Below, one piece after another: positions 5,999 to 8,990 of a stretch of 24,735 nt of DNA (positions are counted from its first letter, which is position 1; each line of letters starts with the position of its first letter). The notes under the pieces are model-generated. The model did no database searches, was not told the origin of the DNA, and saw nothing but the letters and a program-made list of their open reading frames with translations. Made by a program: the position numbers and the translations under genes. Source of the stretch: a virus (Duplodnaviria > Caudoviricetes); the IMG/VR virus record IMGVR_UViG_3300032218_001005, positions 1 to 24,735 of that record; one strand, written 5' to 3'.

Positions 5999-6027
5999 AT
6001 TATTAACCTAACTTAATTTCATGTCAA
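5999..6027 (-). promoter_or_regulatory. Leftward sigma70 promoter (pL-like) TTGACA-N17-AATAAT
   Basis: Perfect -35 at 6027-6022, 17-bp spacer, 5/6 -10 at 6004-5999. Confidence 0.8.
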
Positions 6028-6091
6028 CAGTTAATTTAGGTTATTTTCTAGGGATTAACCCTAGTGTTGCTTAATTGTTAACTTAGCTTAA
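6003..6091. promoter_or_regulatory. Operator-like TTAA-N6-TTAA sites plus a central 17-bp palindrome
   Basis: TTAACCTAACTTAA (6003-6016), TTAATTTAGGTTAT (6031-6044) and TTAACTTAGCTTAA (6078-6091); the outer two lie within the divergent promoters. CTAGGG-ATTAA-CCCTAG at 6048-6064. Confidence 0.65.
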
Positions 6092-6094
6092 AAT
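6067..6094 (+). promoter_or_regulatory. Rightward promoter (pR-like) TTGCTT-N16-TAAAAT, probably giving a leaderless cro mRNA
   Basis: -10 at 6089-6094 ends 6 nt before the ATG at 6101; no SD. Confidence 0.65.
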
Positions 6095-6100
6095 TAAGCT

Positions 6101-6259
6101 ATGACAAAAACAGATTTGATCCGACTCGCAGGCTCACAGCGTGAGCTAGCCAAGATACTAAGCGTTTCTTTTCCTGCGGTTTGCCAATGGAAAGAAAAAA
6201 TTCCCGAGCTGCGTTTGCGCCAGCTTAAAGACTTGAAACCTGAGTGGTTTACAACCTAA
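6101..6259 (+). CDS. cro: Cro-like HTH repressor, 52 aa
   Basis: Absent from the track. Manual translation MTKTDLIRLAGSQRELAKILSVSFPAVCQWKEKIPELRLRQLKDLKPEWFTT has the P22 Cro/YdaS-type pattern GSQ-ELA--L-VS--AV-QW...IP--R; first rightward gene. Confidence 0.9.
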   Translation: MTKTDLIRLAGSQRELAKILSVSFPAVCQWKEKIPELRLRQLKDLKPEWFTT

Positions 6260-6275
6260 CCAAATCATGTATACT
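6248..6275 (+). promoter_or_regulatory. Promoter TTTACA-N16-TATACT at the 3' end of cro
   Basis: 5/6 match at both hexamers; the predicted start (~6281-6282) coincides with the first base of the first hairpin. Confidence 0.6.
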
Positions 6276-6281
6276 TCAACC

Positions 6282-6660
6282 CGTCTAGAGTGGCATCTAG
6301 GCGATGAATCGACAGTGAACCCCGCAGAGTACTGTGTGGTCTTGCAAGGTAGCAAGCGTGACTTTTGTCGATTCAATCGTTTAGCTGCTGCTCTCGCCAA
6401 GAGCCAAGACCACAGAGCATTTTGCGGGGTTTTTGCTTTTGGACAACACAATGCGGTACGTCGATGGTTGTGTTTGAGATACCCCGATACACGAGCAAGC
6501 CAAATCGGGGAGCGTGGGCTAATTGCTAGAGCGCGGTGGTTGAAACAGTCTGGCATAGTGCGATGCGATGACATGGCTCCGAAGAGCAACATCGAAGCAC
6601 AGGCGAACTTTGGTTTTGACCACGGTAAGGCTGTGCTTTGCTCCAACATTCACCAAAGAG
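6282..6660 (+). ncRNA. Candidate large structured RNA, two pseudoknotted domains (6282-6440 and ~6445-6660); family not recognised
   Basis: Hand-checked helices: 6282-89/6296-6303, 6318-44/6405-31 (25 of 27 paired), 6305-15/6365-75, 6348-58/6378-89, 6390-94/6400-04, 6482-88/6504-10, 6525-30/6549-54, 6594-6602/6631-39, 6536-45/6614-23, 6608-14/6652-58. G-U pairs favour the + strand. Confidence 0.7.
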
Positions 6661-6675
6661 CAATAAGGAATACAG

Positions 6676-6993
6676 ATGAGACAGTGCAAATGTGGTGGGT
6701 TGATAAGGGAACATCAGCTTACAGGGTACAGAATTGCATGGACTTGCAATAGTTGTGGTCGATATGAACAAATTAACTTGATGGAGAAAAAAATGCCAAT
6801 TGGGTTCAAACAAGAAAACGCATTGCAGATTTATGGTAATGGTGAAGGTTTTGTTGTTATTGAAGAATGGGAAACCAGTGACTGTGTTGATTTGTTAGGT
6901 AAAGTTGAAATCAGTTATGACAAATTTAAACAGATGATTGAGTTCCACGCTGAAGATTTATTAAAAGAAGCAATTGGAACTAATGATGTTTGA
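6676..6993 (+). CDS. Zinc-ribbon domain (CxC...CxxC) fused in frame to an acidic domain
   Basis: SD TAAGGA before ATG 6676; second GGAG plus in-frame ATG at 6793. Confidence 0.7.
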   Translation: MRQCKCGGLIREHQLTGYRIAWTCNSCGRYEQINLMEKKMPIGFKQENALQIYGNGEGFVVIEEWETSDCVDLLGKVEISYDKFKQMIEFHAEDLLKEAIGTNDV

Positions 6994-7342
6994 ATCAGGC
7001 TTTGATAGATTTTGGGCGGCATGGCCAACAAGTACCCGAAAGGGTGGCAAATCAGATTGCCGTAAACGCTGGGAACGCTTTTACTGTGAAACTTGCGTTG
7101 ACCAAATCCTAAAACACATTGAATGGATGAAAACAACCGACCAATGGCGTAAAGATGGAGGCGCTTACATTCCAGCACCTGCGGTTTACCTTAATCAACG
7201 CCGATGGGATGGCGCTGAAATACCTGAAGTTAAGAAGACCATCAATATTTTGGAAAAAATTGCCGAGGAACGCGCAAGAGCTGTCCCAATTCCCCCCGAA
7301 ATTAAAGCTAAGTTTGATGCGCTGCGGGGGCGAAATGGATAA
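6983..7342 (+). CDS. Short protein resembling the C-terminal helical domain of phage replication initiators/organisers
   Basis: FDRFWAAWP...KGGK...W...KDGGAYIPAPAVYLNQRRWD pattern; occupies the O-gene position; likely start ATG 6983. Confidence 0.65.
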   Translation: MMFESGFDRFWAAWPTSTRKGGKSDCRKRWERFYCETCVDQILKHIEWMKTTDQWRKDGGAYIPAPAVYLNQRRWDGAEIPEVKKTINILEKIAEERARAVPIPPEIKAKFDALRGRNG

Positions 7343-7574
7343 AGATGAAGCAAACCGACTTCTTGACCGACACAAAGAAACCAAAGAACTTAGCTATGCT
7401 GACACCACAGCAGCGCTTAGAGCTACAGGAGACCTTGAGGACGATGGAAGCGCGGGAGTGGGTGAAAAGATACCGCAAGAAAGTGAAAGACCTTGGGAAA
7501 ACGAAAGCATCCGCTTGGTGGTCACAAATTTACTTAGGGATCGAAAAACAGCGTGGATCAGCCGCCGCCGCTGA
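7335..7574 (+). CDS. Hypothetical protein (MDKDEANRLLDR...ALRATGDL)
   Basis: ATG 7335 overlaps the end of the upstream gene; amphipathic N-terminal ~35 aa. Confidence 0.55.
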   Translation: MDKDEANRLLDRHKETKELSYADTTAALRATGDLEDDGSAGVGEKIPQESERPWENESIRLVVTNLLRDRKTAWISRRR

Positions 7575-7611
7575 CCTTAGAAAGCGAATGAATGATGCAA
7601 ATAATCTTTAA
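7345..7611 (+). CDS. Basic helical hypothetical protein (EAREWVKRY...RGSAAAADLRKRMN); start may be 7396
   Basis: Protein-like amphipathic helices; the 3' end overlaps the rusA start. Confidence 0.65.
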   Translation: MKQTDFLTDTKKPKNLAMLTPQQRLELQETLRTMEAREWVKRYRKKVKDLGKTKASAWWSQIYLGIEKQRGSAAAADLRKRMNDANNL

Positions 7612-8014
7612 TGTCGTTGGCGACCCAAAAGGCAAAGGCCGTCCCCGCTTTTCCCGCTTTAGCAAGTTCACCAAGGTTTACACCGACCAACAAACGCTAG
7701 ATTACGAAACCGCCATCGGAATTAGCGCTTCCCAAGCAATGGGTTCATCCCAGCCGCTAGAAAGCCCTGTAGAGGTCTTTTTATACGTCAGGCTACCCAT
7801 TCCTCAGTCGTACTCAAAAAAACGCTCTGAGGCCTGTTTAAATGGCTCTGAACGCCCAAAAAAGAAACCTGACATCGACAACGTTGCAAAAGTCTTTTTG
7901 GATGCGATGAACGGGATTGTTTACAAAGATGACACGCAAGTAGTCTCATTACACGTTAACAAGGTCTATGCACAAGAATCGGGCGTAGACGTTTTGATAA
8001 GAGAAGCAGAATGA
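7592..8014 (+). CDS. rusA: RusA-family Holliday junction resolvase
   Basis: PKGKGRPRF, catalytic KPDIDNVAK--LDAMNG and DDTQV. Confidence 0.94.
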   Translation: MMQIIFNVVGDPKGKGRPRFSRFSKFTKVYTDQQTLDYETAIGISASQAMGSSQPLESPVEVFLYVRLPIPQSYSKKRSEACLNGSERPKKKPDIDNVAKVFLDAMNGIVYKDDTQVVSLHVNKVYAQESGVDVLIREAE

Positions 8015-8340
8015 AACCTGAAGAAGCAGCACAGCAAATCAGAGACAAAGCGCCAGCTTATGGTGAAGCCAAAGCCCAAAGGGTTTATCTTGAAGAATTC
8101 CGCAAAAGCCAAAAAGCTTTACTTATGAAAGATGCGCTAGAAATGGGGTTTGAAGCCGCCAATGCACAGGAACGTGAAGCGTATGCTGACCCTGTTTATC
8201 AGAAATTACTTAAGGGATTGGCTGCGGCAATTGAACAAGAAGAAACGCTTAGATGGGAATTAGAAAGCCTGCGCTTGGATATTGAGATATTCAGAACGCG
8301 GGAAGCCACCAACAGAATGCAAGATAAGGCACACCAATGA
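8011..8340 (+). CDS. Coiled-coil phage protein (EREAYAD motif), possibly UvsY-like
   Basis: ATGA-coupled at both ends; all-helical. The UvsY resemblance is an impression only. Confidence 0.6.
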   Translation: MKPEEAAQQIRDKAPAYGEAKAQRVYLEEFRKSQKALLMKDALEMGFEAANAQEREAYADPVYQKLLKGLAAAIEQEETLRWELESLRLDIEIFRTREATNRMQDKAHQ

Positions 8341-8543
8341 AATGCCCCGTATGCGGGACTTGGACCATTGTCAAAGAAACCCGAACTAGCACTGGAAACA
8401 CCCGCAGGCGCAGACTAGAGTGCGCTAATGAACATCGATTTACCACTTTGGAGACTGTGATTGTTCCCAAAACATCAGTACGTCAGAAGCAAAAAGGTTT
8501 TGGAATTAGTACGGACTTTGCGTTGCCAAAACTGCAAGGTTAG
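8337..8543 (+). CDS. Stand-alone NrdR-N/Ogr-like zinc-ribbon protein
   Basis: MKCPVCG...VKETR...RRRRLECANEHRFTTLE parallels the NrdR N-terminus (CP-C...DSR...RRRREC--C--RFTT-E); no ATP-cone. Confidence 0.8.
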   Translation: MKCPVCGTWTIVKETRTSTGNTRRRRLECANEHRFTTLETVIVPKTSVRQKQKGFGISTDFALPKLQG

Positions 8544-8811
8544 CGATGGAACCATAGTTGCCGCACACACCAATTGGGGCGGGGGTAAAGGTCGGTCAAT
8601 CAAAGCAGACGATAACCTTGTGGCGGCGCTTTGCCATAAATGTCATACCCTGATCGACCAAGGCAAATTATCCAAAGCAGAACGCATGGACATTTGGGAA
8701 CGCGCCCATTTACTTACCCTGCACCAACTAGTTCTGCAGGGTTTGTGGCCAAAAAACGTACCCTTGTCGGATCAATACTTACGCATTGAGGGCAAAGGTG
8801 CTGACTTCTGA
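8461..8811 (+). CDS. DUF1364/YbcO-like zinc-binding HNH-type protein
   Basis: CQNC...TIVAAH...GKGRSIKADD...LCHKCH--IDQ; nin-region position. Confidence 0.75.
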   Translation: MFPKHQYVRSKKVLELVRTLRCQNCKVSDGTIVAAHTNWGGGKGRSIKADDNLVAALCHKCHTLIDQGKLSKAERMDIWERAHLLTLHQLVLQGLWPKNVPLSDQYLRIEGKGADF

Positions 8812-8990
8812 CTAGCCTCATGCGAGCGTGGGGGGTGGGCGTGCGCCATGTCGGTCTTTTCGTGTTTCTTTAACTCTTTTTCCAAAGCAGCTACTTTGCG
8901 AGCTTCTTTTTTATATTCACGTTCAATAACGTACTCTTTGGCTTCATGCGCTTTGGATTCGCCGCGGGTAATGGTGAAGTTGGTGGCCAT
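8772..8990 (-). CDS. Charged hypothetical protein, last gene of the late operon
   Basis: SD AGGAG; overlaps the convergent gene by 40 nt. Confidence 0.7.
   Translation of the reverse strand: MATNFTITRGESKAHEAKEYVIEREYKKEARKVAALEKELKKHEKTDMAHAHPPRSHEASQKSAPLPSMRKY

Follow-up and report, generated by a model that had tools for sequence, protein, structure and literature searches.

Nucleotides 6445–6664 (+ strand) of the 24,735-nt phage sequence analysed here (the window; IMG/VR virus record IMGVR_UViG_3300032218_001005, Caudoviricetes, a 72%-complete record) are predicted to form the 3′ half of a non-coding leader RNA with two domains. In order, the full unit would consist of a sigma-70 promoter (6248–75), domain 1 (~6282–6440), domain 2, and the Shine–Dalgarno (SD) sequence and ATG of the gene beginning at 6676. 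Six predicted helices, P1–P6, and two predicted pseudoknots in domain 2 are supported by compensatory changes among relatives, and full-length homologs are recognisable in more than 100 uncultured IMG/VR phage contigs, immediately before the first gene of an early operon. Two short words within domain 2, X1 (6581–90) and X2 (6655–64), share a core that differs between members of the family and yet remains identical within each of them.

The homologs were collected by exact-motif scans of IMG/VR, which returned four loci containing a 32-mer, at least 120 stretches with the P1-loop motif (about 170 estimated) and at least 120 with the P6 motif (about 300 estimated). In these loci nhmmer, with 6420–6675 as the query, gave 129 matches, nearly all of them end to end. 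The 126 sequences with full flanks represent 86 distinct ones, which together with two from contigs of metagenome-assembled genomes (MAGs) make up the 88 rows of a MAFFT alignment (A2). The MAG members were retrieved from 185,579 species genomes with a degenerate pattern avoiding the seed motifs; it found 41 stretches, of which nhmmer upheld these two, the remaining 39 being dismissed as chance matches. A distant-mode blastn search with 6000–7000 gave no cultured-phage match.

Across the 88 rows, 86.9% of the cells in the domain 2 helices and knots are paired, against 76.5% in shuffles, and both partners have changed in 381 cells, against 136. The score for covariation, 0.345, compares with 0.162 in shuffles, none of 500 shuffles reaching the observed value, and it falls to 0.07–0.12 once partners are slid by one to three columns. 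An independent mutual-information screen puts the same pairs on top, among them 6448–6471 in P1, 6512–6534 and 6513–6533 in P3, and 6524–6555 in P4. P1 (6445–6474; strands 6445–51/6468–74) is a hairpin with an almost invariant 16-nt loop, in which six of the seven pairs are changed on both sides. In the P2 hairpin (6482–6510; strands 6482–88/6504–10), the CCCCGAT/ATCGGGG stem already picked out in the initial annotation, 98% of cells are paired and four of seven pairs have both sides changed. Its loop (6499–6501) pairs with 6535–37 in 100% of cells, the pair 6501–6535 being C–G in 63 sequences and U–A in 23. P3 (6512–14/6532–34) crosses P4 (6524–30/6549–55) in a covarying H-type pseudoknot occupying 6512–6555. 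Since P3 encloses the 5′ strand of P4 whilst the 3′ strand lies outside, and since the P2 loop pairs outside P2, the domain contains two pseudoknots.

Further downstream, covariation and compensatory variants back P5 (6594–6602/6631–39), which was also proposed initially as the stem GAAGCACAG/CUGUGCUUU, and P6 (6611–14/6619–22), which P5 surrounds; a GCGAA/CGGUAAGG internal loop within P5 (6594–6639) is conserved in the alignment. P4–P6 score lower (70–82% paired), in part owing to register shifts between clades in the MAFFT alignment; the pair counts rest on this sequence-based alignment and not on a covariance model, and the P4–P6 figures are probably underestimates. Applied to the MAFFT alignment, RNAalifold, which considers nested pairs only and meets the same register shifts, recovered P1–P3 and not P4–P6. 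It also proposes a long-range helix between UGGU (6537–40) and ACCA (6652–55), which is invariant in 88 of 88 sequences, an invariance that precludes covariation. Many unpaired bases in domain 2 are likewise invariant.

Folding energy tells a different story from the comparative evidence. The minimum for 6445–6660, −70.3 kcal/mol (z −1.46), was equalled or bettered by 19 of 200 shuffles, and the minus strand of the same region gave a z of −1.27; the z of −3.99 for 6260–6675 as a whole comes mostly from domain 1. The folding energy of domain 2 alone is not beyond chance; the case for structure rests on the relatives, in which covariation was found, albeit for pairings partly different from those proposed initially.

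All sequence strings quoted in the initial annotation are present in the window letters at the positions it gave, and its central claim, a compact pseudoknotted non-coding domain immediately before the SD of the gene at 6676, is borne out by covariation and indels. Several of its pairings have fared less well. Of its second stem, the core (6524–30/6549–55) covaries as P4, but the outer GCUA/UAGU part is weak (66% paired, with the innermost pair formed in 23 of 88 sequences). The hairpin GCUC-CGAA-GAGC is 76.5% paired and shows no covariation; the GCUC/GAGC pairing cannot covary, because GGCUCC is invariant whilst its partner varies. A GAUG/CAUC pairing is 15% paired in the gapped alignment. 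The initial annotation further proposed a set of mutually exclusive helices, comprising a loop–loop helix (6536–45/6614–23), an H-type knot (6608–13/6653–58) and a long-range helix (6461–70/6587–95). The window does contain these pairings, whose two sides are simply conserved: none covaries, and jointly they are 79.2% paired against 79.3% in shuffles, with a score of 0.095 against 0.096 that 359 of 500 shuffles equal or exceed. Compensatory changes do occur in P6, a competitor of one of the three. Of the two partners suggested for 6461–74, the local one (6445–51) survives, in the form of P1, whilst the long-range one (6587–95) lacks covariation. P1 as a stable local form, and both the P3/P4 and the P2-loop/6535–37 pseudoknots, had been missed. 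The particular switch that was proposed has no comparative support, though the domain may still act as a switch. Overall, the observation is partly confirmed and the interpretation partly supported.

The region is bounded upstream by an open reading frame (ORF) for a 52-aa P22-Cro-like protein (6101–6259; Pfam P22_Cro, E 8e-10) and downstream by the ORF beginning at 6676, and has a G+C content of 0.52, compared with 0.37–0.40 in both flanks. Two long ORFs span it, one of 161 aa on the plus strand (6267–6752) and one of 163 aa on the minus strand (6158–6649). That one of these is a real gene, with the pairings being incidental, can hardly be credited. Both frames are open in the window, but the homologs contradict a coding role by alignment: indels of 1, 2, 4 and 11 nt appear in a five-way alignment, and in the larger set entire hairpins are inserted between 6542 and 6543. 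Because of these changes, which are not multiples of three, no reading frame survives. Neither ORF has a Pfam or PHROG match, and the plus-strand frame has its start within the promoter and shares 77 nt with the next gene. The strand that folds is indicated by 43 sequences with U–G at 6487–6505, which would be C–A on the opposite strand; hence it is the plus strand. Gene callers are likely to misannotate the 161- or 163-codon opposite-strand frames as protein.

The inserted hairpin, variable in length (~14 to 37 nt), occurs in many members between P3 and the 3′ strand of P4, the 6542/6543 junction carrying it in L077, L002, L240, L026, L112 and others; such an optional insertion is a typical tolerated peripheral expansion of a folded RNA. 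Loss is also seen. A natural variant, L007 (2850–3120, − strand), keeps P1 and the X1-P5-P6-X2 module without P2–P4, and its deletion junction falls between the short similar words GAGAU and GACAU.

The putative promoter, TTTACA-16 nt-TATACT on the plus strand (6248–6275; 10 of 12 matches), overlaps the end of the Cro-like ORF, its −35 hexamer falling in the last codons. Hexamers resembling TTGACA and TATAAT were recognised by eye in an alignment of representatives, ahead of a conserved CCGUCU(A)GAGUGGCA, and the predicted sigma-70 promoter thus appears to be conserved across the family. The predicted start of domain 1 (6282–6440, + strand), a knotted RNA whose ends are approximate, lies near the conserved CCGUCUAGAGUGGCA. 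Its helices 6308–11/6369–72 (26–35 of 71 sequences changed on both sides) and 6323–25/6424–26 (9–27 of 71) cross, so that domain 1 is itself knotted. It closes with a terminator-like arrangement of a G+C helix, in which CCCCGCAGAG (6320–29) pairs with 6420–29, and a U-run, UUUUUGCUUUU (6430–40). The closing helix covaries, appearing as CCCCGC/GCGGGG, CCCUAC/GUAGGG or CCCCAU/AUGGGG.

The suggestion in the initial annotation that the two domains belong together is upheld. Of 77 distinct flanks upstream of domain 2, 71 contain a domain 1 homolog, preceded by the conserved promoter, and each domain is single-copy in the window. The other six flanks (L002, L003, L082, L026, L047 and L148) carry a shorter domain, non-homologous by nhmmer, which likewise ends in a hairpin and U-run, so this ending is kept even where the upstream sequence is unrelated. 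No case of domain 1 without domain 2 was seen among the loci examined. A screen for pairs between the domains gave no covarying helix, the top 20 of 37 candidates being scattered two-state columns. As for the ~380-nt non-coding RNA envisaged initially, the domains do form one unit, but a single RNA of that length is not the sole expected product, because the G+C helix and U-run separate them.

Both X words follow invariant motifs. X1, GAAGAGCAAC in the window, follows an invariant GGCUCC (6575–80), the two together spanning 6575–6590; X2, AAAGAGCAAU, follows an invariant UCACC (6650–54) and spans, together with it, 6650–6664. The words are 64–81 bp apart, flanking a ~75-nt hairpin. Their identical core of 6–12 nt is kept in every X1/X2 combination printed, and differs widely between members: AAGAGCAA, AAAGGCAA, UGGGUCA, UAGGGCAU, AGAUUGGAA, AAGGGGAA, CGACAG and others. 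The columns 6584–6658, 6585–6659 and 6586–6660 covary as identities, not as complements, for which, to our knowledge, there is no known counterpart. X2 lies in or beside the ribosome-binding region, which in the window consists of the SD AAGGA (6665–69) and the start codon (6676–78) of ORF 6676–6993 (+). For some clades the SD is X2 itself (AAAGAGGAACUUAUG, ACCAGAGGUCUACAUG), and there is one clade whose X1 repeats the ribosome site as far as the start codon (…GUUAUC versus …GUUAUG). Changes in X coincide with changes of the downstream gene cassette; X is not tied to the Cro-like protein, since loci with identical copies of that protein can differ in X. Two other explanations of the repeats were dropped: a target-site duplication of an inserted mini-element, because every member has homologous flanks, and splicing or circularisation there, because no ribozyme model matched.

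Of 48 distinct downstream flanks, 46 have a start codon that opens 35 codons or more no farther than 90 nt from UCACC, and 43 have it within 45 nt; in 15 of the 48 it lies within 16 nt, and there X2 itself must be the purine-rich SD. What follows is variable, the first gene being most often a 114–129-aa protein or a small CxxC...CxxC ORF.

No partner for X was found close by. Its reverse complement is absent from the 24.7-kb window and has no consistent place within 3 kb in other loci. Over 19 X types, none of four regions yields a co-evolving duplex with X (permutation p 0.29–0.93): the 200 nt downstream, domain 1, the remainder of domain 2, and the inter-repeat region, for which p is 0.79–0.89. 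Comparison with the columns of domain 1 gave clade-level signals only, with no specific mutual information. The U-run does not co-evolve with X as a partner, since over 47 combinations the diagonal means (−9.13/−9.25 kcal/mol) match the overall ones (−9.31/−9.10 kcal/mol).

These results bear most directly on an immunity mechanism of the kind used by P4 CI and by the c4 RNA of P1 and P7, in which a small antisense RNA would have X1 and X2 as its twin targets; its pairing there would lead to premature termination or obstruct the replication genes' ribosome site, and immunity specificity would follow from the rapid, concerted change of X. The layout in c4 consists of the repeats a1b1/a2b2. C4 is an antisense RNA acting on icd/ant expression, according to an extract of PMC8198154, and the P4 CI RNA pairs with seqA and seqC, placed upstream and downstream of CI, preventing expression of the replication genes (extract of PMC4825925). 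The P4 immunity leader, as outlined there, is similar in being an untranslated leader with its own promoter before replication genes, with two like sequences around a structured RNA (PMC4825925). The phage leader shares this arrangement: a constitutive-looking promoter and an untranslated leader precede replication-type genes, and two co-varying direct repeats surround a ~75-nt hairpin, with the downstream one (core of 6–12 nt, within 45 nt of the start codon in 43 of 48 flanks) at the ribosome site. As in the immI operon of P1 and P7, an RNA stands ahead of the genes that it would control and the downstream target is at the ribosome site. That X differs between loci with identical Cro-like proteins is also what would be expected of a specificity determinant. 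The central segment of P4, however, is complementary to both flanks, and nothing equivalent exists here: neither the element nor its vicinity holds a complement of X or a segment co-evolving with it. Moreover, the Rfam C4 model has no match and no antisense segment is present, and the phage leader is about three times larger than c4, with two pseudoknotted domains. Antisense immunity of this type is accordingly unlikely for this leader. A trans partner encoded elsewhere would rescue it.

The repeats could alternatively function at the level of DNA, as iteron-like direct-repeat sites of a replication origin or of a regulator. They lie 64–81 bp apart and beside a gene for a 122-aa protein with a partial replication-initiation match. 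Against this, the strand-specific U–G pairs and the compensatory changes show selection on a folded single strand, there are two repeats only, and X does not follow the neighbouring DNA-binding protein. A role of this kind is very improbable.

On the favoured reading the leader probably acts in cis, controlling expression of the early or replication genes that start 9–45 nt behind it; a gate of this kind, working by competition between GGCUCC and the X words, is rated somewhat short of even. Transcription from the promoter would end at the U-run (6440), giving a ~160-nt RNA, or continue into domain 2. In the read-through RNA, X1 would mimic the sequence of X2 and the ribosome site. Both words could pair with the invariant pyrimidine tract GGCUCC, and in the window also with CUUUGCUCC (6635–44). 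A tract bound to X1 would leave X2 free; one bound to X2 would shut the ribosome out. Which of the two prevails would be biased by the upstream pseudoknot core, through its own folding or through a bound factor. In partition-function folds of the 3′ module, X1 pairs with GGCUCC in 12 of 19 X types and X2 does so in three others; in 14 of the 19, X2 is for the most part unpaired (0.5 or more), and the window's X2 can also pair with CUUUGCUCC. These modelled ensembles would fit a competition whose outcome opens or closes the ribosome site.

A number of points weigh against the gate. X matches GGCUCC no better than random 11-mers do (median percentile 0.42–0.44), and matches GCUUUGCUCC only modestly better (0.20–0.24). 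As GGCUCC never varies, its pairing with X is beyond the reach of covariation analysis, and a pairing of 3–5 nt does not account for an identity of 6–12 nt. The same element stands before unrelated first genes, and a transcription-level device therefore fits as well as translational control. A terminator scan with a loop limit of 8 nt did not flag the helix and U-run of domain 1, because that helix closes an interior of ~90 nt. The homolog set was seeded by exact motifs and its members are related, so that sequence counts are not independent events. A look-up of sequencing runs gave no RNA run for the window, and one run of uncertain kind that contains 6% of the sampled words. Finally, the start, termination and read-through of the transcript would all have to be as deduced from the sequence.

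A more radical reading of the X words is that they are a programmable address, in which identical, fast-evolving words flank a conserved hairpin on a knotted scaffold and are read by a non-adjacent partner. A trans RNA, the template DNA strand of the locus and a host molecule are candidates for the reader. We consider an address of this sort unlikely.

Transcription-level devices are represented by put of HK022. Here the nascent folded RNA would bind polymerase and render it resistant to pausing or termination within the operon at whose head it lies. In HK022, putR lies downstream of a cro-like gene. Like put (extract of PMC9378689), the leader would be a structured nascent RNA of a lambdoid-type early operon, and it too is positioned after a cro-like gene. 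The element is tied to the operon head and not to any one gene family, and its many invariant unpaired bases suggest a macromolecular partner; put RNA for its part acts alone, as a nascent cis element of a lambdoid phage (PMC9378689, in extract). However, put is ~70 nt long, has two stem-loops and precedes the terminators that it suppresses, whereas domain 2, with six helices and two pseudoknots, is different in kind, abuts a start codon and lies downstream of the only nearby terminator-like signal. It does not stand between a promoter and terminators that it could suppress: a simple scan of the plus strand over 6676–8811 found no terminator, Rho-dependent sites being outside its scope, and the only one detected was at 8838–52, where the operon ends. 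The tight start-codon spacing and the identity of X1 and X2 would also be left unexplained. A put-like function is quite unlikely.

A riboswitch-type sensor is quite unlikely as well. The P1–P4 core would serve as the aptamer, binding a small molecule or ion, and X1/P5/X2 as the expression platform, with domain 1 and its helix and U-run forming a second, transcriptional sensor. Pseudoknots, invariant joining regions and a variable peripheral hairpin beside a ribosome site are in keeping with this, as is the tandem arrangement with a terminator-like element. The downstream genes, on the other hand, are unrelated to metabolism, L007 dispenses with P2–P4, and no riboswitch model of Rfam was matched. 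Rfam 15 gave no match in the window at gathering score and none in 6260–6675 at E up to 10, and 12 diverse members searched at gathering score gave none except an unrelated tRNA. Ribozyme models had no match, and ARAGORN detected neither tRNA nor tmRNA in the window. Translated bypass, as in gene 60 of T4, was dropped because the upstream frame is broken by indels.

Two further phage systems resemble the unit in its transcription. In the PR'-6S RNA-tR' unit of lambda, a strong promoter gives a short terminated transcript of ~160–190 nt and the downstream genes are reached by read-through only, which depends on the Q protein acting at DNA; we know of no fold of its own for that short RNA. A promoter, a short terminated transcript and read-through genes are what is predicted here too, but no Q-like gene was found in the parts of the window scanned. 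In Gifsy-1, one promoter gives either the short terminated RNA IsrK or a read-through mRNA ahead of ORFs (extract of PMC4825925). A single promoter serving a short terminated RNA or a read-through leader would be common to both, the architecture in the phage being a deduction from sequence. IsrK differs in that its short RNA pairs with the downstream part of the long form (PMC4825925, in extract), whilst no covarying helix between domain 1 and domain 2 was seen in the best 20 of 37 candidates.

Phage early operons have long provided the classic models of RNA control, amongst them nut, put, c4 and CI. The leader described here belongs with the phage regulatory leader RNAs, and its identical X1 and X2 words without a complement are the one feature for which we know no counterpart. 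With two pseudoknotted domains, a promoter of its own, an internal terminator-like signal and partnerless identical words, it represents a widespread family that is apparently undescribed; literature searches, which targeted analogues rather than this family, found no description of it. Should the words determine specificity, or hold a translational switch in balance, the family would offer a compact natural gene-control part, and a new case of mosaic phages keeping a regulatory RNA matched to swapped downstream genes. The address reading, if true, would be a new phage specificity device that chooses which phage's early or replication genes fire, providing immunity or incompatibility without a cis antisense RNA.

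The genes around the leader are given here for orientation. In the window, the protein of the 114–129-aa type is the 122-aa product of 6974–7342 (+), which matches only the C-terminal part of phage replication-initiation/primosomal profiles (phrog_9474, 178–251 of 288). The rest of the plus-strand operon encodes RusA, an NrdR/Ogr-like zinc ribbon and an HNH nuclease, and the minus strand carries Erf, a YqaJ exonuclease, terminase, portal, lysis and tail genes. In the window ORFs scanned, from this 72%-complete record, no helicase, primase or full-length initiator was recognised, nor any reverse transcriptase, integrase, or N- or Q-like gene. The small zinc-ribbon protein (8337–8543, + strand) is encoded close to where the rightward operon ends; its matches are to NrdR N-terminal and Ogr/Delta-like models, and it may serve as a late-gene activator. 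A near-consensus leftward promoter-like sequence, TTGACA-17 nt-AATAAT (5999–6027, − strand; 11 of 12 matches), faces away from the Cro-like gene, and the leftward strand passes the Erf and exonuclease genes straight into the terminase and portal genes. The two members from MAG contigs are labelled Alphaproteobacteria (2 kb) and Dechloromonas (22 kb), labels too thin for a host to be named. On the Dechloromonas-labelled contig a tRNA gene (L282:7446–7519, + strand) lies ~3.3 kb downstream of the element and could mark a prophage boundary.

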